Under the pieces are notes generated by a model. It worked only from the letters and a program-made list of their open reading frames with translations. It was not told the DNA's origin and did no database searches. 64,000 nucleotides of DNA from Microcoleus sp. (GTDB taxonomy: Bacteria; Cyanobacteriota; Cyanobacteriia; Cyanobacteriales; Microcoleaceae). Made by a program: the position numbers and the translations under genes. This document shows, in pieces, positions 26,120 through 39,022 of the stretch. Location of the stretch: positions 192,001-256,000 of the forward strand of contig JAYFMW010000006.1 in NCBI GenBank assembly GCA_042408215.1. Reading direction: 5' to 3'. The stretch's first letter is position 1. Every line of letters starts with the position of its first letter.

Positions 26120-28615
26120 ATGACTAATAACCAACCAGAATGGCGGCGATGGCAGAAAGCTCTCTCAGTAGAAGCCGATCGCGGATTTAATGACTTACAA
26201 GGCAGTCAATACCGCTTTAGCGAGTTTCTCAGTGTCAGCTTGAGGCAACTCGCAGGTGTGTTGCCGGCTCATTTGCGCGATCGCTCGCGACAACTAGCTG
26301 CCGAATTTGACATCTACCCAGAGAAGGATATCGAAGAACGTCAGCATTTGCTCGCCATCACGGGTAGTTTTTTGAGCCAAATGCAGCGAGTTTGGGAAGC
26401 AGAAAGCAGCCAACAGGGGGAACCAGAAAGACCAGAAAGACCAGAAAGACAAGATCCGCCAATTTCCACTCCCCGAACAGCACCTCTGAGTTCAGCATCT
26501 GTACCGCTGAGTCTGACTCTTCAGCAAGAGTTGACTCGCGTCACGGGAATCGGCCCTGGGAACGGTAGCCGCTTGGCAAAATTGGGTTTATACACTGTAT
26601 ACGACTTGCTTTACTACTATCCCCGCAACCATATTGACTATGCCAAGAAAGTGCAAATTCGGGACTTAGTAGCTGGGGAAACTGTCACTTTGATAGCAGA
26701 AGTAAAGCGCTGCAATTGCTTTTCTAGTCCGAAAAATAAGAAGTTAACGATATTAGAATTAATTTTAAAAGACCGCACCGGCGAAATTAAAATCAGTCGC
26801 TTTTTTGCGGGGCCACGCTACAGCAATCGCGGCTGGCAAGAATACAAAAAACGCGAGTATTGTACGGGTGCGGTGCTGGCTGCTTCGGGGTTGGTGAAGC
26901 AGGGGAAATATGGCATTACTTTAGAAAATCCTGAATTAGAAGTATTGGATGACTCAGGAAGTGCGATCGAATCTATGAAAGTGGGCCGCCTGATCCCTGT
27001 TTATCCGCTGACGGATGGGGTGGATGCGGGTGTTGTGAGGCGGGGGATTTTGACTGTGATGCCTGCGGCTACGATGTTGTCGGAATCGCTGCCGGCCGAT
27101 TTGCGAGATCGCTACGGTTTAATGGGTATAGCCGATTCTGTGACTAACATTCACTTTCCAGTCGATCGAGATTGTTTAGCCGCCGCCCGCCGCCGCTTAG
27201 TTTTTGACGAGTTTTTCTATCTGCAATTAGGACTTTTGAAGCGCCGTCAAACGCAGCGAAAAGCTCAAGCTAGCGCCATTATTCTGCCTAGTGGCAAGTT
27301 AATCGAACATTTTTATGAAATATTACCTTTTGCTTTAACTAATGCTCAGCAAAGAGTAATTAACGACATTCTCAATGATTTAGCATCGGCGGAACCGATG
27401 AACAGATTGGTGCAAGGAGATGTCGGTGCTGGTAAAACAGTGGTAGCCGTGGTGGCAATGTTAGCAGCGATTCAATCTGGTTATCAAGCAGCTTTAATGG
27501 CACCGACGGAAGTGTTAGCAGAACAGCATTACCGCAAATTGGTAGGTTGGTTTAATTTGATGCACTTGTCAGTTGAATTGTTAACTGGTTCGACGAAAGT
27601 AGCCAAACGCCGCGAAATTCACAGCCAGTTAGAAACCGGAGAATTGCCTGTTTTAGTGGGAACCCACGCGCTAATTCAAGATACGGTAAATTTTCATAAA
27701 TTGGGTTTGGCAGTAATTGATGAACAGCACCGATTTGGGGTGCAACAGCGCGCTAAATTGCAGCAAAAAGGCGAATCTCCTCACGTTTTGACGATGACTG
27801 CTACTCCCATTCCTCGGACGTTGGCGCTGACTTTGCACGGCGATTTAGATGTGAGTCAAATTGATGAGTTGCCACCGGGAAGGCAGGCGATTCAAACGAC
27901 TGTTTTGTCTTCAAAGGAACGTAGTCAAGCTTACGATCTGATTCGGCGGGAAGTGGCAAGCGGGCATCAAGTTTATGTGGTTTTGCCGCTGGTGGAGGAG
28001 TCGGAAAAGCTGGATGTGCGATCGGCAATTGAGGAACAGGAAAAACTGCAAAAAAGTATATTTCCTGAGTTTAGGGTTGGTTTGCTGCACGGCAGAATGA
28101 GCAGTGCCGATAAGGATGAGGCAATTACTAAGTTTCGGGACAAAGAAACTGATATTTTGGTATCTACTACTGTTGTGGAAGTTGGAGTAGATGTGCCGAA
28201 TGCAACGGTGATGTTTATCGAGAATTCTGAGCGTTTTGGATTGTCACAGTTGCACCAGTTGCGGGGTCGAGTTGGTCGGGGAACCAGCCGTTCTTATTGT
28301 TTGTTAATGCCCGGTTCTAAGGCTACGGAGGCGATGCAAAGAATGAAGGTTTTAGAGCAATCTCAAGATGGCTTTTTTATTGCGGAAATGGACATGAGAT
28401 TGCGCGGGCCTGGTCAGGTTTTGGGAACTCGTCAATCGGGTTTGCCGGATTTTGCTTTGGCGAGTTTGGTGGAGGATCAGGAGGTTTTGGAGTTGGCGAG
28501 GGAGGCGGCTCAAATGGTGATTGATAGTGATGAAAGTTTGAATCAATGGCCGGTGGTGCGGGATGAGTTGGAACGGAGATATCAGCGGATGATGAGTGGG
28601 TCGATTTTGACTTAG
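26120..28615 (+). CDS. recG: ATP-dependent DNA helicase RecG
   Basis: RLVQGDVGAGKT, IDEQHRFG, MTATPIPRTL, QLHQLRGRVGRG, RGPG..LGTRQSG. Confidence 0.98.
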   Translation: MTNNQPEWRRWQKALSVEADRGFNDLQGSQYRFSEFLSVSLRQLAGVLPAHLRDRSRQLAAEFDIYPEKDIEERQHLLAITGSFLSQMQRVWEAESSQQGEPERPERPERQDPPISTPRTAPLSSASVPLSLTLQQELTRVTGIGPGNGSRLAKLGLYTVYDLLYYYPRNHIDYAKKVQIRDLVAGETVTLIAEVKRCNCFSSPKNKKLTILELILKDRTGEIKISRFFAGPRYSNRGWQEYKKREYCTGAVLAASGLVKQGKYGITLENPELEVLDDSGSAIESMKVGRLIPVYPLTDGVDAGVVRRGILTVMPAATMLSESLPADLRDRYGLMGIADSVTNIHFPVDRDCLAAARRRLVFDEFFYLQLGLLKRRQTQRKAQASAIILPSGKLIEHFYEILPFALTNAQQRVINDILNDLASAEPMNRLVQGDVGAGKTVVAVVAMLAAIQSGYQAALMAPTEVLAEQHYRKLVGWFNLMHLSVELLTGSTKVAKRREIHSQLETGELPVLVGTHALIQDTVNFHKLGLAVIDEQHRFGVQQRAKLQQKGESPHVLTMTATPIPRTLALTLHGDLDVSQIDELPPGRQAIQTTVLSSKERSQAYDLIRREVASGHQVYVVLPLVEESEKLDVRSAIEEQEKLQKSIFPEFRVGLLHGRMSSADKDEAITKFRDKETDILVSTTVVEVGVDVPNATVMFIENSERFGLSQLHQLRGRVGRGTSRSYCLLMPGSKATEAMQRMKVLEQSQDGFFIAEMDMRLRGPGQVLGTRQSGLPDFALASLVEDQEVLELAREAAQMVIDSDESLNQWPVVRDELERRYQRMMSGSILT

Positions 28616-28807
28616 AAATTATGATGATTTGTTGAGCATGAAAATTTAAGTTTTCGGGCGGGAAGGATGCCAACCCCTACTCCTCACAAGAGATAGATTA
28701 ATAGTTAGCTTTTAAACCCATCGCACAGGCGGGACGCCCGTGCCACGATGGATGGGGAGGGATTAAGGGCGATCGCACTATAGAAAAGTTAAAAAGTTAT
28801 TTTTTAG

Positions 28808-29155
28808 CTATAAATTCAAAAGAATGCGTAGTCTTTCTTCTACCATCATCAATGTTGTTGAAGAAACAGTACCCCACAGTTCAAAAAATCTGTCTATACT
28901 GATCGATCGCACATCTTCACATTTAATGAAACTTCGCTGTCTAAGTCCTCCTTCTGGGGGGTTAACTTCAACGTGCCAGGGAATTCCTTTATCTTTGGAT
29001 GTGACTGGCACCACAACGACTAATCCTGACGCACCCTGATTGAATAAATCTACAGATATCACCAGACAGGGACGCTTTCCAGCCTGTTCTCGCCCTCGTA
29101 TTGGGTTCAAGTCAATCAGCCATATATCACCCCGTGATGGTTTTGCTGAGGTCAT
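28808..29155 (-). CDS. PemK/MazF family toxin
   Basis: RGDIWLIDLNPIRGREQAGKRPCLVIS, VVVPVTS. Confidence 0.92.
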   Translation of the reverse strand: MTSAKPSRGDIWLIDLNPIRGREQAGKRPCLVISVDLFNQGASGLVVVVPVTSKDKGIPWHVEVNPPEGGLRQRSFIKCEDVRSISIDRFFELWGTVSSTTLMMVEERLRILLNL

Positions 29156-29397
29156 TCTAAACCATCCTCTAAAGTGATATCCCAAGCTTCGCGTTCTTCA
29201 AGTTCTTCTTGCCAAGCTTCTGGGCGATCGCGTAAGGTCAAATAAGCCTGGTTGGCTGCTTCTAAAAACTGTTGTCTTCGGTATTGTTCGATTGCTTGTT
29301 CGAGGACTGTTTGGATTGGTTTTCCTGAGCTTGCAGAGAGTTCTGCGAGGGTTTGATAAGATGTATTGCTGATTGTAACTGTAGAAGTTTGATTCAT
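29152..29397 (-). CDS. Ribbon-helix-helix antitoxin for the MazF-type toxin
   Basis: 81 aa with an ATGA overlap with the toxin; acidic C-terminus WDITLEDGLE. Confidence 0.85.
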   Translation of the reverse strand: MNQTSTVTISNTSYQTLAELSASSGKPIQTVLEQAIEQYRRQQFLEAANQAYLTLRDRPEAWQEELEEREAWDITLEDGLE

Positions 29398-29645
29398 GTT
29401 AGTTTTTTACCTACCACAATGTTACCCAACTATTATACCTTACAAGCTTGATGTTCGTACTTTTTTCGTTCGCAGGTACACGCTGATGGATGTAGTGGGG
29501 ATTAAGGGCGATCGCTCTTTTTGTCGTAAGGGCGATCGCCGCAGCTCGTCGCGGACTTGTATCCCTGTAGGATGAGCCATAATAGACAAAGCTGCAACCC
29601 TTGTAGCCCGATCGATTAACCAGCAACTATTGGAGTGTTTGATTT

Positions 29646-29846
29646 ATGCTAATTGAGAAGATCGTTCAAGAACTACAAGACATTCCCGAAGACAAACTCG
29701 CAGAAATCTATGACTTGATTCACTATTTTCGCCTCGGATTAGGACGAGAACAGCCACAGCCTCGCACCCCTGGTTTACTGACGGGAAAACTCGGTGATGC
29801 TTTTTTTGAACCCCTACCATTCGAGGAACTGGAAAAATGGGAATAA
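29646..29846 (+). CDS. Antitoxin (DUF2281/VapB-like)
   Basis: 66 aa, IPEDKLAEIYDLIHYF...RTPGLL.G...FFEPLP; overlaps the PIN toxin. Confidence 0.8.
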   Translation: MLIEKIVQELQDIPEDKLAEIYDLIHYFRLGLGREQPQPRTPGLLTGKLGDAFFEPLPFEELEKWE

Positions 29847-30235
29847 GCTACCTCATTGACACCCATATCCTGTTGTGGTGGCTCTTTGACGACCCCAAAC
29901 TCAATGCCCAATGCCGCGACATCATTCGCAACCCCGATTTTAATATCATTGTCAGCACTGTTTCAGCCTGGGAAATAGCCACCAAATATCGCATCGGTAA
30001 ACTTCCTGAAGCCAAACAGATTGTGGAGGAATATTCGCAAATTCTCCACCGAGCCAAATTTATTGAACTAGCTATAACTTCAGCCCATGCCCTCCGCGCT
30101 GGCAGCCTGCCGATTGCCCACCGTGACCCGTTTGACCGGATGATTATGGCACAAGCTGAACTCGAAAATTTGCCAGTTATTACCTACGATACAGCTTTTC
30201 ACACGGGGCTAATTCAAGTTATCCCCACCGCCTAA
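29837..30235 (+). CDS. VapC family PIN-domain toxin
   Basis: YLIDTHILLW, VSAWEIATK, HRDPFDRMIMAQA. Confidence 0.93.
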   Translation: MGISYLIDTHILLWWLFDDPKLNAQCRDIIRNPDFNIIVSTVSAWEIATKYRIGKLPEAKQIVEEYSQILHRAKFIELAITSAHALRAGSLPIAHRDPFDRMIMAQAELENLPVITYDTAFHTGLIQVIPTA

Positions 30236-30357
30236 TCAAGAGCATGAGCATCGGAAGGGCGATCGCACTTTTTGTCGTAAAGGGCGATCGCCTGTGGAAC
30301 TAAACCGATTATAATTGCTAAAATAAAACTGAACTGCTCTTTATCTATAATCAGATT

Positions 30358-30609
30358 ATGACTGTTATTGAACAGATTTATGCGATCGTCAAAACTCTTC
30401 CCCAAAATCAAGCTAGCGAAATTCTCACTTTCGCACAGTTTATTCGTGCCAAGTACCTGAATGGGAATCAATCCACCGATACAGTAGATGCTTTAATTCC
30501 TTGGACGGAACTGGTTTATTCCCTAGCTGGAACTTGGGCAGAAGACTTTCCTACTCTGGAAGAGATTCGTGCTGAGTCGGGGGAAGACATTTTGCGGGAG
30601 AGCTTTTAG
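30358..30609 (+). CDS. DUF2281-like antitoxin
   Basis: LPQNQASEILTFAQFI...LAGTW..DFPTLEEIR; abuts the PIN toxin. Confidence 0.8.
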   Translation: MTVIEQIYAIVKTLPQNQASEILTFAQFIRAKYLNGNQSTDTVDALIPWTELVYSLAGTWAEDFPTLEEIRAESGEDILRESF

Positions 30610-31002
30610 ATGTATATTTTGGATACAAACACATTAATTTACTACTTCAAAGGACAAGGACAAGTTGCCCAAAATTTTGCCAATGTATCTCCTGAAGAAA
30701 TTGGAATTTCCACGATCGTCCTATTTGAATTGCAAGTGGGTATTGCTAAATCTACTTCGCCTGCAAAGCGTACCCAACAACTTCATCAACTTTTGAGCCG
30801 AGTTAATCTTATTCCTTTCGATCGCGATTCTGCTGTTGCTGCTGCCACAATCCGCGCCCAATTGGAGCAACAAGGTACTCCGATCGGTCCGATGGATGTT
30901 TTGATTGCAGGGACAGCCTTAGCTTTGCAGGCAACTCTTGTTACTCACAATGTCAAGGAGTTTGCGAGAGTTTTTGGACTTGCGATCGCCGATTGGTATT
31001 GA
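30610..31002 (+). CDS. VapC family PIN-domain toxin
   Basis: YILDTNTLI, GTPIGPMDVLIAGTAL, LVTHNVKEFARV. Confidence 0.93.
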   Translation: MYILDTNTLIYYFKGQGQVAQNFANVSPEEIGISTIVLFELQVGIAKSTSPAKRTQQLHQLLSRVNLIPFDRDSAVAAATIRAQLEQQGTPIGPMDVLIAGTALALQATLVTHNVKEFARVFGLAIADWY

Positions 31003-31118
31003 ATGTCTGGCATTAAGTGTGACTTGTCTTTGGTCAATGGTTTGAGACAGTAAATTTAGCATAACAGAAGGGCGATCGCACTTTGTGTGTTAAGGGCGAT
31101 CGCACTAATCCGATTATC

Positions 31119-34100
31119 CTAAATCAGTGGCAGATTGATGGGGACAAAACTACCGCTTAACTGACTCGGTGATACACCGACAACAAGACCTAAGATTTGA
31201 TTCGATCCGGCAATCTTGATGACAGTATTTCCCTGATCGAAGTTCAGCAGTAAGTTCGATTCTGTTAATCCTTCTGTCAGTCCAATTTTATCTGCACCTA
31301 ATTGGAAGTCTAAGATAGCATCTGGCAGAAAATCACCAGTTACGGCCGCATTTTTTGGTAGGACAAAGGTATCACTGCCGGGGCCGCCAAATAAGATATC
31401 TCGACCTAAATCGCCGCTGAGGGTGTCATCGCCTTCGTTCCCTTTGAGGCGATCGTTGTCAGTACCTCCTAGGATTAAATCATTGCCTCGGCCGCCAAAA
31501 ATATTGTCATTTCCGCTGTTGCCGGTGAGGATATCATTGCCTTTATTGCCGTAGATGATGTCATCTCCGCCAACTCCGGCAAGGGTGTCATCACCAGCGA
31601 AACCAGCAATGCTATCTGCTGCGTCTATGCCAACTAAATTGTCGTTTTCAGGAGTTCCTAAAACTTGACGCAGTGGAGGACGAGGTGGTGTGGGTGTGGG
31701 TGTTGGTACAACATTATTTGTTGTCGATTCAGTACCGTCATTTGTGACTGTAGTGCTGGCGAAATCGACATCATTTGAGATATCGGGGTCGTATGTTTTA
31801 CTCGTTATGCTAGAGGTACCGGTGATGTTTCCAGTTGTCGGCGCGGTAACGGTAATGCTAACAGTTGAAATTTGACCTTTGGCTACATCGCCGAGGTCAA
31901 AAGTTAGTTCATTTCCTGACTGTTTGGTGGGGGCGATATTAGCCGAAACAAATTTAGCACCCTCTGGCAAGGTTTCGGTGAGGATTGCACCTTTAGCGTT
32001 ATCAGTGCCGTTGTTGGTGACTGCAACCGTGTAGGTGATGTTAGTTCCCGGTATTGCTGTATCGCGATCGGCTGTTTTAGTGACTGATAAATCTGCTGAT
32101 TCTGTCACTTTAATCGGCAGCGGTGCGTAGCTGAAAACAGGTGCGTTGTTTTCATCCATCGCCATTGCGTAGACGTAGTAATCGCCTGTGGGTAAGCCTT
32201 GAGTGTTCCAGATGAAGTTGCCTGCACCGTCTTTTTCCTCAAGGCCACCTTTGATTAAGATGCCATCGAAACCTTGGTTATCAGTGTCGTAGAACAGGCT
32301 AACTTTGGCAGTGGAGTCAGAGTCAAAAGCGTTGTAATTGATGGTGACATTTTGCCCACTCACATCTTTAGATGGGGCAGTCACTTGAACAGTCGGAGCC
32401 TGAGAATCCTGAAAAGCACTGTACTCCACAGTACCTAAAGCAGCGGAATTTGTTAAGTTGATATCCCAATTACCCGGTTGTGGATTGGCGATCATAACTG
32501 CTTTAGTAGTTGTACTGGTGAGGGCATCAACAATTGCAATTTTATTGGCTGCAAAATCCGACTCTTTGAAAATAGCTCCATTGGGTGCTTTGATTTCAAC
32601 AGGAGTATTAGCAGTGGCATTATCCCAGTTGGCGTTGAGAATTATCCACGGCGTGCCTGGGGCAACAGTAAAGCCTTGTATGGCGGAAGCTGTTTTATCT
32701 GCACTAGCTTCAAGCTGATTGCTAGAGGCAACTCTTTCGATTTGACTAGAGGTAACGATAGAACTATTTGTTCTTGGGACTGGTTGACCTACACTAGCCG
32801 AGGCTTTACCATCAAAGGAAACTTTGAGCGTCGCTTCATATTCTATTTTGATAGACTCCTTAAAGTTTAAAGGATTGAAGATTTCTATGGGTGGTAACTT
32901 ACCATAAGCCTGAACAAAGTCGTTCGATAAATCGTTGTCATTGGAGTAGTTGAGCGCAAATTCTGCTTGTGCAAGTGGCTGACCTTTGAAGTTTAATTTT
33001 CCACCGCCTACCTCATTTCCAAGAATTTTTACTTTGGGAATTTCAAGGGATATATCTGGGAATTTGACGTTGGCACTACCACCCATCATGATGTTGAAAT
33101 TCTTATCGGTAGTAAATTTGCTTTTGGTATTGATTACACCCCCAAGCATTGAGAACTCACCCTCAGCATTGAAGAATTTTTTATTCCAATTGAGTTCAGC
33201 CTCACCTTTGCCCTCTGCTAATCCACCTGCTATTTTGATAGTACCGTTTGTTTTGAGACGATCGCGAGTGATACTACCGCTTGCATTAATCTCAACAGCA
33301 GACCCAATAATAATATCTTTTGCCGCCCAAGAAGGCGGTGATATCTTGATATCAGGACCAGCAGTCACTTTAACATCGGTAAGACTGGTCTCAATTTGAT
33401 CGGGTTTGGCGAGATTATTCACTTGCCCTGATATGCTCTGAAGAAAAGCACCAGTAGCACCAATAGGTTTGTTGAGGTTACTACCTCCTATTTTGATAAA
33501 GTTTAATTTCTTATCAACAAAACCAAGTCCGCCAATTAGTTCAATTCCTGCCGGAATAAGCATTCTACCTTCGCCCTTAACCTCTTTGGCTTCTGTATCC
33601 AAAGATAATTTTGCATTTCTAATTTCCCAGACATTTGGCACCAGCTTGATATTGTCTAAAGAAAATGACCCTTTGACATCCACAATGGGGTTAAAGTCAC
33701 GGTTTATCTTAATGTAATTGGGCTCGGCAAAGTTGGCAGTAAAAGTGGGAGTAGGGGTGGGAGTGGGAGTGGGAGTTGGAGTTGGAGTTGGGGGAAATGG
33801 AAGAAACTCGGCTTTACCTTGAAGCGTAATCCCTGCTTTAGGCTGAGAAGTATATCCTAGAGCTAAACCTTTCCCTTTAACGTCCAGTAATTGGCCAATA
33901 GAGAAGTTTACATCTGGGAAATCAATTTTTCCTCCTGTCACGCTCACACCATTCTCGCTAATCAGGATTTTATTGTTGCCCCTGATGTCTAACGTTAAAG
34001 GGGAAGTAGGAGTGGGAGTTGGGGTGGGAGTTGCAGCGGAATTGGAAGTTGGAGTTGGAGTTGGAGTTTTATCTCGGCTGAAGATTCCAGGTGGGAATTG

Positions 34101-36830
34101 AAGCGTCCCTTCTAATTCAATTCCTTTTTCTGTAAAAGCTAAGTTGGTAAACTTAACTTCTGTTCCAGCTAGCTTAAACTGGTTTGCTACTGCTTGAGTA
34201 GTTTCCTGAACAGATTTTGCAACCGCTTTGCCAACGTCAAATTCTAAATCACCTTCATACAAAGGTACTGTTATTAAGTCACCAATAGTGGGTGAGAATA
34301 TCCCATTAGCTTTGATGGTTTTGTTGTCGTAACTAACAGAGCCATTAACACTCAACAACGGGGGGCGATCTTTTAACCCTATTTGAATAGTACCGGATGC
34401 TTCGTAGCGTTTGGTTGTATTGTTAAATACGAATTGACCGTTAACTACTTTGAGCCTCAGCGGACTTAGATCCGGCTCGCTAATAGGAGGTGGTGTCGGA
34501 GTTGGAATTGGAAGAGTTATGGGAGTTGGCGTCGGAGTCGGAGTTAGGGGTGTTGGTGTCGGAGTCGGAGTTAGGGGTGTTGGAGTTGGAGTTGGAGTTA
34601 GGGGAGTTGGAGTTGGAGTTGGAGTTAGAGGAGTTGGTGTCGGAGTCGGAGTTGGTGTCGGAGTTGGTGTCGGAGTTGGGGGTGTCGGAGTCGGAGTTAG
34701 GGGTGTCGGAGTCGGAGTTGGAGTTGGTGTCGGAGTTGGAGTCGGGGGAGTTGGTGTCGGTGTTGGAGTCGCGGTTACAATAGATGTGGCTCCAAATATT
34801 CCACCGCTAACACCCGTAACATCTTTATCAAGAGTGCCTACTCCTGTTGCTGGATTGATAACAATCCGCTGGTTAGCTCCGGTGAAGCCGAACAGATTCC
34901 CATCTTTGCTGGATAAACCATACACTTTACTGAAGCCGATGTTACCAATCTTGGTAGCCTGACCAGTTAAGGATATGGAGAATAAGCTGTTATCACTGTT
35001 GACCCCAGATGTAGCTAAAAAGCGATTACCAACAGGATCAAATAATAGATCGCCACTAGCATCAAAGTTAGATCCCAGATTAGCAACCAAGGATGCTGCA
35101 CCCGTAGTTTGATTAATGGTATATAAGTTAGAACCGCCAGTTGCATAAAGTACATTACTAGGAGAAAATGCCAAACCAACTATGTCTACACTTGCACCGA
35201 GGTTTCCAATCGGTGAGGATGAACCTGAGACTGGATCGACGCTGTACAACTGGCTATTAGTGATGCCAAACAACTTGTTGTCACTAGATAAGGCGATATC
35301 ATTTAAACTTGGGCTAGTTGCAATCTTTACAAACTTTCCTGCTGAGTCAACGCTTCCGACTTGCCCGCTATCTGTAGAAACCAAAGATGATGCAGTCCCC
35401 AAAGAGCTAGTTTTGAAGGTATAGTTTCCTGTCTCGTTCGCATTCAAGCTAGTAGCTCGAATCGCGTAATTCACACCGGGAATTGCTGTGAAACTTAACT
35501 GTGAATTCTTACCACCATTGATTAAGTCATCGTTAAAGGCAATCACTTCACCTGTTGAAGCATTTATCAGTTGTAGGTAACTGTCAATAGCCGCAGTCGA
35601 ATCCATGTTAACTTGAACTTGCTGCCAATTGGAAATCCCAGTCAAGGTATAGTCATCGGAGAAGCTACCCAATCTTTTAGGGTTTTTAGTATCAGTGCTA
35701 CTCAAACTTTCGTTAATCGTTTCCCCTAAGCCAATAGTCAGGGGTGTCGGGGTTGGTGTTGGAGTCGGAGTTGGAGGGGTCGGAGTTGGAGTTAAAGTTG
35801 CGATCGGGATAGACCCTGCACCACTAATCGTATAGCCATTGGTAAGACCTGTGATATCACTATCAAAAGTCCCTTCTCCTGTTGCTGGATCAATAATAAT
35901 CCGCTTATTATCTTCTGTGAAACCAACAAGAGTGCTTCCCTCAAAAGACAAGCCAACCACATCATCAAAGCCAATGTCACCAATTTTAGTGGATTGGCCA
36001 GTTAAGGACACAAAAAATAAGCTAGAGCTAAAACCACTACTTTTAGCAAACAAAAATCCGTTATTGACAGGATCAAATACTATGTCGCCACCTGAAGTTT
36101 CGTCCAAAGAAAAGTCTGCTATTGATGATGCAGTCGCATTTTGAGGATTAACGGTGTATAATTTAGAGCTATTAGAGCTATTAGAACGACTAGCTCCATA
36201 CAGTGTGCCATTAGGCAAAAATTCCAGGGCAGCCATCTGCACACCAGAAGGGAAGTTGCCAATCACCGACGATGAACCTGAGTCTGGATCGATACTGTAC
36301 AACTGGGTAGGGAGGCTATCTCTCTTAATACCCAAAAGCTTGTTGTCATTAGAAAAAGCAATGTCAGCAAATTCTGAGTTACTTGCGGCTTCAACAAAAT
36401 TTCCTATCGATACAAATCTTCCTAATGGATCAACTGTTCCGGCTTCTTGTCCATTCCTCGTAACAACTAAAGATGATGCAGTTCCTAACGAGCTAGTTTT
36501 GAAGGTATAGTTTCCTGTCTCGTTCGCGTTCAAGCTAGTAGCTCGAATCGCGTAATTCACACCCGGAACTACTGTGAAACTTAACTGTGAATTCTTAAGA
36601 CCATTAATTAGGTCATCGTTCTCGGCAATCACTGCACCTGTTGAAGCATTTACCAGTTGTAGATAACTGTCAATAGCAGCAGTCGAATCCATGTTAACTT
36701 GAACTTGCTGCCAATTGGAAACCCCAGTCAAGGTATAGTCATCGAAGAAACTACCTAATTTTTTAGGATTTTCAAGATCAGTGCTGCTCAAACTTCCGTC
36801 AATCGTTTGCCCTAAGCCAATATTCGTCAT
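31119..36830 (-). CDS. Giant secreted surface protein: two PPC + beta-propeller modules, PT linkers, DUF11, RTX-type Ca-binding C-terminus
   Basis: Duplicated N-terminal module; [21 protein letters not shown] (DUF11); GxxGxD nonapeptides; C-terminal [13 protein letters not shown]. Confidence 0.85.
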
Positions 36831-37249: not shown

Positions 37250-39022
37250 ATGGCTGGTTTGCTCAGAGCATCTGAAGAAGGGCTAAAAATCATTGACATG
37301 GTGCGACGCAACCTCGGATGGAATAAAAGTGAGGATACTCTGGTGTCAAGCTGCTCTAACTTCAAAAGCCACTTTAAAGCGATTTTGGGCGCAGAAACCG
37401 AATTAGACGAGAGAACATTTATCGATATTTGCAAAGCTGTAGGAATGAATAACTGGGAAGACATTGTTGAGCGCAAAATATCAAGAAACAGAATTACTTT
37501 TAGCCGCCGCGATCGCAGATATCCCCCTAGACAACCAAACCGATCGCACATTCCCCCTCCCAGAAAACTTACCCCCCGTCAGAAACTGGGTACAGCGCAC
37601 CAAAGAAATCGACACCTTAAAAACCCTAATCGCTACTCCCCCCCTTACCAAGGAATCGCCCACTCCTACTCCCCCCCTTACCAAGGAATCGCCCACTCTT
37701 GCTCCCCCCCTTACCAAGGAATCGCCCACTCTTGCTCCCCCCCTTACCAAGGAATCGCCCACTCTTGCTCCCCCCCTTACCAAGGGGGGGCTGGGGGGGG
37801 TTCCCATCGCCATCTCAATAGTCGGATTACCCGGAATCGGAAAAACCACCCTCATCAGCCAACTAATCCGCCAACTCCACACCGAAAAAACCCCCTTCAC
37901 CATGCGCCGCTTGGCAATCCTTGCAATCCGCAACAGGCAAAGCACCCCCGTGCGATCGCACAATTGACTCCCTGCTATTCACCCTCTCCAACGGCGACAT
38001 TACCGCAGCCGTCAACGCTCAAAATGACTGCGGCAAAAAAACCGAAAATCTGCTCAAAATCCTCAGAGAAAAACCTTGCTTAATTGTATTCGATCGCGCC
38101 GACACACTTTTGAAAGCAGGAGAAGCCAAAGCCGCCGGTTATTTCGCAGAAGATTGTGCAGAATATGCTTGGTTATTCAAACAACTATTAGAAACAGAAC
38201 ATCAAAGCAAAATCATCTTCACCAGTCGCGAAAGCTTAGCCGAATTGCCGCCAACAGTCACCCGCGAAATCCAGCTCAACGGATTGGATCGAGATGCGGC
38301 AATTTCCCTGTTGCAATCTTTCAATCTGACTGCAAATGCAGAGGAATTAGCGGAAATGGGCGATCGCTATTCAGGACATCCCAAAGCCTTACAACTCGTC
38401 GCAGCCTTGATTCGAGATGATACCGAGTTTCAAGGAAATGTCGGGAATTTTCTACACCAGAGAGACTGGTTGCTGATTCGAGATATTGAGAGATTGATTG
38501 ATGAAATCATAGCCCGTCTCAGCGACGGCGAACAAACTTGTCTCAGCCGAATTTCTGTCTATCAAACCTCAGAATATCCCCTATCTTTTGCAGGAATTAG
38601 CGCTCAAATGCCAGAAGTTCAGCAAGTATGAACTTAAAGAAAATATTATCCTTGCACTCAAGCGCCGACAATTGCTATATTACGATTACCAACGAGAATC
38701 CTATCAATTGCATCCGCTAGTTCGAGAAAAGGGCGAACATCTGCTAAATCAAAATCCCGAAAATCTCCGTACCGCCCACAGCCAAGCCTATAATTATTAT
38801 ATCAGCATTCCGCTCAAACCGGAATCTGAATGGCAAGATATCGAGGATATTCAGCCCTTAATTAGAGCGCACTATCATGCCTCTCAAGCAGGAGATTTAG
38901 ATGCTGCAAATGGGATTATTTCTAAAGTTTATGAGTATTTGCGGCAGTGGAATTGTGCAGAGTTAGTATGTGGAAATATAGAGTTACCATTGTTAGCAGA
39001 AGTGAAAAATATTAGCCTTTGA
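37250..39022 (+). pseudogene. NB-ARC/NACHT-like (STAND) ATPase with an N-terminal HTH-like region and three frameshifts (~37475, ~37900, ~38622)
   Basis: Consecutive ORF pieces give LPPVRNWVQR, Walker A GLPGIGKT, Walker B-like CLIVFD, IIFTSRE, GHPKALQL and YQLHPLVRE. Confidence 0.8.
37636..37801 (+). repeat. 33-bp tandem repeat (4 units) ending in a CCCCCTTACCAAGGGGGG dispersed repeat, in frame within the NB-ARC gene
   Basis: Unit CTCCCCCCCTTACCAAGGAATCGCCCACTCTTG encodes PPLTKESPTLA. Confidence 0.9.

Follow-up and report, generated by a model that had tools for sequence, protein, structure and literature searches.

An integron-like array of toxin-antitoxin cassettes jointed by extended HIP1 repeats in Microcoleus

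In the window analysed here, a 64,000-nucleotide stretch of a Microcoleus sp. genome (assembly GCA_042408215.1, contig JAYFMW010000006.1), three toxin-antitoxin pairs lie between repeats built on the HIP1 core GCGATCGC, and this arrangement represents a single allele of a cassette array that spans the genus. The units of the array recur whole and keep one orientation, their order changes, and their partners switch at the core. The array functions as an integron does without being one. It is probably a new form of HIP1-directed recombination on an extended HIP1 site, the extended GCGATCGC being the likely point at which modules are exchanged in an integron-like array without an integron integrase. 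The novelty of the window is its arrangement and not its toxin-antitoxin proteins.

The repeats of the window are seven plus-strand copies of AAGGGCGATCGC, at 28765, 29504, 29528, 30255, 30280, 31068 and 31092, laid out between 28765 and 31103 as one single copy and three doublets (Table 1). The earlier note on this DNA had described three toxin-antitoxin pairs punctuated by HIP1-based repeats, three of them doublets with a T-rich spacer, and both points hold: the toxins are recognized by Pfam and NCBIfam, and the HIP1 cores of doublets 1, 2 and 3 are spaced by 24, 25 and 24 nt, with T-rich sequence between them. The genome contains 5123 copies of HIP1 and 257 of AAGG-HIP1; despite this abundance, seven same-strand AAGGGCGATCGC copies within 2.4 kb occur only in the window and in a toxin-antitoxin array at C3:45.6 kb, so that the cluster goes beyond chance and, as the note had argued, HIP1 abundance alone does not account for it. 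The exact 18-mer TTAAGGGCGATCGCACTA at 28763 and 31090 turned out to be the sole pair of copies in the 7.36-Mb genome, and the GATGGATG prefix is indeed common to 28747 and 29485 and recurs within a gene at 30891. The 18-mer pair is, however, no special boundary of the array, as had been supposed, because the giant-gene flank and cassette 1 both end in its right half, and in these two contexts it recombines with other left halves.

Table 1. Features of the cassette array and of its neighbours in the window (positions are those of the window)
Feature	Position	Strand	Remarks
recG	26120..28615	+	current neighbour in the window lineage; not a part of the system
G/A-rich leader	28747-28764		right-hand terminus of a short spacer unit frequent in such arrays
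Single site AAGG-GCGATCGC-ACTA	28765..28780	+	left joint of cassette 1; loose metagenome contig ends at 28761 and 28780
MazF/PemK-family toxin, cassette 1	28808..29155	-	115 aa, ATG at 29155; PF02452, E 4.9e-29; NF007386 below cut-off
Putative antitoxin, cassette 1	29152..29397	-	81 aa; overlaps the toxin start; no family above cut-off; role from layout
Doublet 1	29504..29543	+	cores at 29508 and 29532; 16-nt spacer; hairpin fold
Putative antitoxin, cassette 2	29646..29846	+	66 aa; in 8/28 arrays; no Pfam/NCBIfam match
PIN-domain (VapC-type) toxin, cassette 2	29837..30235	+	132 aa; PF01850, E 4.9e-20
Doublet 2	30255..30295	+	cores at 30259 and 30284; 17-nt spacer
Putative antitoxin, cassette 3	30358..30609	+	83 aa; commonest array family, 20/28; DUF2281 below cut-off
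VapC toxin, cassette 3	30610..31002	+	130 aa; PF01850; NF047863, 132 bits vs cut-off 140
Doublet 3	31068..31107	+	cores at 31072 and 31096; right array joint; loose contig ends at 31066 and 31106
DUF11 / RTX-repeat protein gene (giant gene)	31119..36830	-	1903 aa; 3' end adjoins the array; usual right neighbour in relatives

Each of the three pairs combines a toxin family match with a small upstream partner, as in type II toxin-antitoxin modules, the toxicity and its neutralisation being putative. The cargo fits the PemK/MazF and PIN/VapC families of MazEF and VapBC systems, and the proteins are ordinary. None of the three partner genes has a curated match above the cut-off in Pfam or NCBIfam (one DUF2281 match falls under it), and the label 'antitoxin' is therefore based on size, position and overlap. 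A paralogue of the cassette 3 VapC toxin, 90% identical, is located in another HIP1-punctuated array at C3:47.1-47.8 kb.

For the comparison across the genus, 31 regions were fetched from relatives by repeat or cassette matches; 27 of them carry a window-type array and form, together with the window, the set of 28 arrays, with two regions that have no array (L098, L137) and two that hold another array family (L139, L141) left out. Many matches of cassette 3 in relatives start at query positions 22-28, which correspond to doublet 2, and stop at 855 or 877, which correspond to doublet 3, and the same search also revealed doublet clusters on single contigs. The array neighbours are pfkB in 19 of the 27 arrays in relatives and a homologue of the window's 1903-aa gene in 15, and recG in none; the array usually lies between the pfkB gene and the large secreted-protein gene, and recG is a recent neighbour. 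A recombination hotspot anchored downstream of recG, as suggested in the earlier note, was accordingly rejected: the DNA 3' of recG differs across the genus, and among the matches listed for 20 genus genomes no doublet array was seen 3' of recG in 13 loci and part of a 14th. Small toxin-antitoxin-like or Uma2 genes are present 3' of recG in L043, L044, L047, L048 and L049. In the own genome of the window, C7:261.6 kb retains a doublet on the pfkB side together with a truncated Uma2 gene, and the block seen in the window has thus likely moved from there. Metagenome contigs indicate that recG and the start of cassette 1 are common to close strains.

A strict doublet pattern was present in 4/4 genus genomes and in 0/297 other cyanobacteria of an even draw, and a looser pattern in 78/79 genus genomes; doublet-matching records, among the matches listed (80 of at least 130), were nearly all titled Microcoleus, Tychonema or Oscillatoriales, with one labelled Richelia and one Obscuribacterales. 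Viral contigs gave no match to the strict pattern, and a phage origin of the doublet was rejected. The loop of 8-9 nt varies by locus with the stems kept, and each loop type has its own neighbours. The cargo of the arrays includes DUF433/DUF5615, RelB/ParE, HigB, HNH, PIN and Uma2 genes, along with several pairs that have no Pfam or NCBIfam match.

The contents of these arrays have been shuffled. The 28 arrays contain 198 genes in 33 families, 31 of which were identified in at least two arrays, and the contents are distinct in 27/28. Both orders were seen for 80/162 family pairs that co-occur at least twice, no family was found in both orientations relative to the sites in the 28 arrays (families lie on both strands), and all long matches between arrays (770/770) are same-strand. 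Cassette 3 is 95.4% identical in one relative (L083), compared with 86.7% for pfkB, and cassette 1 is 97.8% identical in another (L131); that some copies are far more alike than the adjacent core gene speaks for transfer of cassettes, whereas many other copies are 87-92% identical, near the level of core genes. In a further genome (G074), cassette 1 is matched from site to site at 98% and is placed after cassette 3. Homologues of cassette 1 elsewhere often lack the sites, and the antitoxin of cassette 3 occurs in 20 arrays and its toxin in 11.

The position of the exchange was resolved on the site consensus AAGG-GCGATCGC-NCTTT, obtained from 138 sites of the first 20 arrays. In arrays chosen via repeat or cassette matches, where ends and pairs are not independent and the same events are counted repeatedly across kin, 181/495 ends of homology blocks in chained alignments fell at most 12 nt from a site, against 36.5+/-5.7 for random positions, and the corresponding count for intergenic block ends was 181/389 against 89+/-8 expected. 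The excess was smaller with strict unchained alignments (129/392 ends at sites against 88+/-8), in which blocks broke up where the sequences diverge; chaining, for its part, may shift ends towards the repeats. The remaining 314/495 block ends lie more than 12 nt from called sites; some reflect decayed or mis-called sites and many are plain deletions, and several of them recur and truncate toxin genes. The same left context was followed by another right context in 151/195 junction pairs, compared with 174/729 and 239/653 (24-37%) in intergenic controls and 25/1028 and 70/1032 (2-7%) in genic controls.

Rare bases within the sites narrow the exchange further. Those at positions -4 and -3 accompany the left side in 8/8 and 82/101 cases and the right side in 0/18 and 6/99, whereas those at +2 to +6 accompany the right side in 94/101, 74/74, 32/34, 122/140 and 80/85 cases and the left side in 16/100, 0/66, 2/36, 2/114 and 12/99; positions -2 and -1 carry no information, and +1 tends towards the right side. 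As linkage switches between -3 and +2, the exchange took place within about 11 bases around GCGATCGC, and this natural evidence of gene-module exchange at HIP1 is base-resolved. In line with HIP1-directed recombination, the crossover is placed in the GCGATCGC core both by the linkage switch and by the AAGGGCGATCGC overlap at a metagenomic joint described below.

The metagenome evidence consists of contigs from eight runs. One contig (X4) joins 30279 to 31092 with a 12-letter overlap and skips 812 bases, so that cassette 3 is missing precisely from one repeat to the next, and its 17/708 and 47/445 differences from the window on the two sides identify it as the allele of another strain. In a second run (X9), the tail of cassette 2 is joined to doublet 3 and the giant gene, with 19 letters on the short side, and many loose contig ends in the metagenome comparisons fall at the sites. 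Three further runs (X7, X10, X12) had no cover over cassette 3 and no long-sided bridging contig, and were left uncounted. No cassette circles or fresh excision were seen in the eight contig runs, in which back-joints were short repeat-to-repeat pieces. The shuffled orders, the linkage switch at the core and the X4 joint bear out the proposal that modules are gained, lost and reordered at HIP1-anchored repeats.

Arrays of a similar kind, each with its own loop sequence, lie at further loci. By simple gene calls on the own genome, AAG before or CTT after HIP1 was found in 14% of intergenic flanks, compared with 5.5% of genic flanks and 4.2% of those around non-HIP1 CGATCG, and the two flanks co-occur at 49 intergenic HIP1 sites with an odds ratio of 5.2. 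Fourteen clusters with at least three AAG/CTT-type sites were detected in this genome, most of which enclose small genes. With toxin-antitoxin genes taken as four Pfam families outside the window, and with counts that are not independent because such genes cluster, AAG-type doublets are near 7/62 toxin-antitoxin genes and 5/1764 other small genes, full AAG..CTT sites near 10/62 and 21/1764, and plain HIP1 near 25/62 and 327/1764; Uma2 genes had doublets near 0/95, yet two Uma2 families occur in arrays. The enrichment that the earlier note had proposed to look for, 7/62 against 5/1764, is thus present, and the doublet, rather than being scattered regardless of cargo with breakpoints elsewhere, is dispersed but biased in its cargo, and breakpoints concentrate on it. 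Descent alone does not fully explain why the AAG and CTT flanks are conserved between arrays whose loops are unrelated.

A comparison with three close relatives over 497 kb gave 39 clean indels, mostly insertions of IS or MITE elements. Four of the empty sites contain HIP1 (one of them doubtful, beside an N gap) with a HIP1 background of 2.5%, and three further indels have CGATCG at the joint; none has an AAGG doublet. Plain HIP1 is thus used too, and the array looks like one instance of a more general process, an instance that reinforces itself.

What HIP1 does has been an open question for three decades (PMC5861425, PMC13756078, in their accessible parts). In the accessible text of PMC4390886, HIP1 is tied to site-specific recombination in PCC 7002 (citing Akiyama 1998), and Robinson 1997 is likewise cited for HIP1-linked recombination in cyanobacteria; the HIP1 extensions listed in that text, for 12 genomes that do not include Microcoleus, are only palindromic. 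A homology-dependent hotspot role of HIP1 in transformation, with homologous and methylated HIP1 raising integration, is described in the accessible portion of a preprint (Kamoku and Nielsen, bioRxiv 2024.09.10.611283), and the available text of PMC13756078 links HIP1 with competence genes, with RadC and with a protein of the recombinase family. As far as these sources go (PMC4390886, bioRxiv 2024.09.10.611283), the Microcoleus arrays resemble HIP1-linked recombination in having crossovers on GCGATCGC, no linked recombinase and a hotspot given homology; the events in print are, however, single laboratory events on plasmids or constructs, whereas the arrays have asymmetric flanks and doublets and are natural, multi-cassette and genus-wide. 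No description of HIP1-jointed cassette arrays was found in the literature search, which lay mostly outside subscription papers and judged most matches by their listing.

The arrays also share with chromosomal integrons and CALIN elements, as covered in the accessible text of Cury et al. 2016 (PMC4889954), the rows of small cassettes, the repeated sites, the similarity of sites within an array and the toxin-antitoxin cargo. Cassettes in Microcoleus lie between repeated sites in fixed orientation and variable order; unlike integrons, these arrays have neither IntI nor attC cores, their sites of 16-44 bp are based on HIP1, and their genes lie on either strand. Among the five tyrosine recombinases of the own genome, the best match to TIGR02249 reached 48.5 bits (cut-off 265), and none of the five is located on the window contig (C6), in agreement with the earlier note that no integrase is nearby. 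The core consensus of attC sites is RYYYAAC and GTTRRRY, and no such core was detected on either strand around the window's four junctions. Membership among integrons was rejected on these two grounds, and of the earlier wording 'integron-like' the part that stands is the outcome, that is, the behaviour of the array; many breakpoints lie off the sites, and there is no integron integrase. Integron-like arrays can thus run without IntI or attC.

We favour, with moderate confidence, recombination between polar repeats that the host carries out at their HIP1 cores and by which cassettes move between strains. Toxin-antitoxin and nuclease modules bounded by AAGG-GCGATCGC-NCTT would enter, leave and change their order at the HIP1 core, probably through recombination proteins of the host and not through a linked integrase, and the cassettes likely pass between strains as incoming DNA from relatives. 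The asymmetric flanks together with the T-rich spacer may supply 12-36 bases of direct-repeat homology that set register and polarity, and HIP1, probably methylated, may be the preferred crossover point. Each integration would leave a site on both sides, so that arrays would seed their own growth and each locus would keep its own loop sequence, while ordinary deletions would erode the arrays, often removing the toxin. Toxin-antitoxin modules likely accumulate because they are small, have their own promoters and resist loss. ComEC and DprA are present, as are C5 methyltransferases, none of which was identified as DmtC. A cassette of 0.7-0.8 kb between two defined sites is a ready substrate on which the bases, methyl marks and proteins needed could be defined. 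The arrays also point to unnamed candidate toxin-antitoxin pairs in a genus that is common worldwide and forms mats and crusts, and a tool for short-site integration in cyanobacteria could be developed from them.

A bolder proposal, which we consider tentative at best, is a HIP1-built analogue of the integron, in which a dedicated host factor would read the polar AAGG-HIP1-NCTT site or the doublet hairpin and would excise, reorder and import cassettes of the defence type at a dozen or more arrays on the chromosome; if true, HIP1 would gain a definite role, that of a universal joint between cassettes in cyanobacterial gene flow. Rather unlikely is a dedicated unlinked site-specific recombinase that reads the 16-bp quasi-palindrome AAG-G-GCGATCGC-N-CTT or a single-stranded doublet hairpin and that excises and reintegrates cassette circles in the manner of an integron integrase. 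The strict polarity and shuffled order, the narrow crossover window, the co-occurrence of flanks at the 49 intergenic HIP1 sites (odds ratio 5.2) and the strongly folding doublets with stems kept and loops differing between loci would all suit such an enzyme, and a 'recombinase family protein' co-evolves with HIP1 according to the accessible material of PMC13756078 (Table S4). A candidate gene was also available, as a single-copy serine-recombinase-like protein of 426 aa with resolvase, recombinase and zinc-ribbon domains is encoded in 5/5 genomes checked. In a class-wide draw, this gene was found in 48/59 HIP1-rich and 8/22 HIP1-poor genomes and was not found in 11/59 of the rich ones. The usual catalytic motif of serine recombinases, YxRxS, is missing in 12/12 aligned homologues, and with this degenerate motif and the imperfect match to HIP1 richness the gene was rejected as the enzyme and kept as a lead. 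The own genome and five array-bearing relatives have no tyrosine recombinase in common, and one genome (G056) has none at E 1e-10. The loops and most of the cargo are locus-specific, although a free recombinase should mix them, and plain HIP1 marks indels too.

Ordinary short direct repeats, joined by RecA-type recombination or replication slippage with HIP1 merely as their most conserved part, are an unlikely explanation. They would account for polarity and deletions with no new factor, AAGG and the core together give the longest stretch of identity, which at the X4 joint is 12 letters, and many breakpoints use other sequences; crossovers would, however, be expected in the shared NCTTT too, yet rare bases at +2 to +6 hardly ever travel with the left side. 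Further, a single HIP1 or CGATCG without a longer repeat is present at about 6/39 clean indels elsewhere, and slippage cannot import or reorder cassettes.

The doublets themselves fold as hairpins, with -19 to -26 kcal/mol as RNA and about -14 as DNA, and 62 of them were assigned to 16 convergent, 6 divergent and 40 tandem gene gaps. A short sequence tied to HIP1 is known from Nostocaceae as SDR5 (Elhai 2008), which the accessible parts of PMC4390886, PMC5861425 and PMC13756078 describe as one 21-nt sequence between HIP1 bases 3 and 4; as far as those descriptions go, the Microcoleus doublets differ in having whole cores and a locus-variable spacer of 16-17 nt and in bounding gene cassettes, and an SDR5-type split between bases 3 and 4 is absent from both cores. 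Terminator-like matches numbered 3 against 2.5 expected, so that the scan for promoters and terminators stayed at chance level, and Rfam gave two chance-level matches, none near the cut-off. It is improbable that the doublet acts as a very small mobile or regulatory element, an SDR5-like insert or a terminator hairpin, decorating formed junctions of an ordinary toxin-antitoxin hotspot, even with the strong hairpins, the surplus of convergent over divergent gaps (16 against 6) and the insertion of SDR5 into HIP1 (accessible text of PMC4390886 and PMC5861425), since none of 13 recurrent left-right combinations, a small sample, showed one-core and two-core alleles of the same junction, the spacers are locus-specific rather than genome-wide, HIP1 is duplicated rather than split, doublet 1 sits between divergent genes, terminator-like matches are at chance level, and partner switching at the core needs a pre-existing site. 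As the doublets fold as hairpins and lean towards the 3' ends of genes, they may have a side role in RNA.

On the right of the toxin-antitoxin array, the large gene that lies next to it may itself undergo exchange at the terminal site of the array. Other large genes stand in its place in several relatives (regions L091, L096 and L131-L134), and the 3' part of the large gene in relatives shares either about 69% or 89-93% identity with the window's copy. The NB-ARC gene beyond it looks broken, being split across several frames with a tandem repeat within, and its length in relatives is 533-564 aa. At the opposite edge, the short palindromic repeat immediately left of the first HIP1-based site has several near-exact copies at other places in the own genome, and is also present in related arrays, at the end next to pfkB.

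Features of the window, of contigs (C) of the own genome (G000) and of DNA regions (L)
Feature	Location	Remarks
Palindromic repeat	window 28723-28749	
Large gene	window 31119-36830	between NB-ARC gene and array
NB-ARC gene	window 37250-39022	
Large-serine-recombinase-like protein, 426 aa	G000:C6:645454-646731 (= L383:4455-5735)	single-copy; outside window
Array remnant	G000:C7:261305-261659	usual location adjoining pfkB; doublet and truncated Uma2 gene, then unrelated genes
Other HIP1-punctuated arrays	G000:C3:45.5-49.7 kb, C8:134-137 kb, C3:326-329 kb, C5:187-192 kb, C5:251-253 kb, C17:464-466 kb	small TA-like genes
Four recurring cassette gene pairs	L086:8711-9417, L081:8538-9375, L081:10384-10949, L086:4041-4606	
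Y1 (IS200-like) transposase gene	L085:9036-9581, L135:10230-10775	within two arrays

The other HIP1-punctuated arrays of the own genome have loop sequences of their own, including the array at C3:45.5-49.7 kb, which shares cassette 3 with the window at 90%. Among the cargo of relatives' arrays, four recurring gene pairs had no match in Pfam or NCBIfam, one of them recurring in 11-12 of the 28 arrays, and they are candidates for unnamed toxin-antitoxin or toxin-immunity pairs. The Y1 transposase gene is probably a passenger.

Away from the array, the serine-recombinase-like protein is kept in many cyanobacteria, with AYxY[ST][DE] standing where the usual catalytic motif is expected. In the class-wide draw it was present in 48 of the 59 HIP1-rich genomes as compared with 8 of the 22 HIP1-poor ones. 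It may be the recombinase-family protein described as correlating with HIP1 in PMC13756078.
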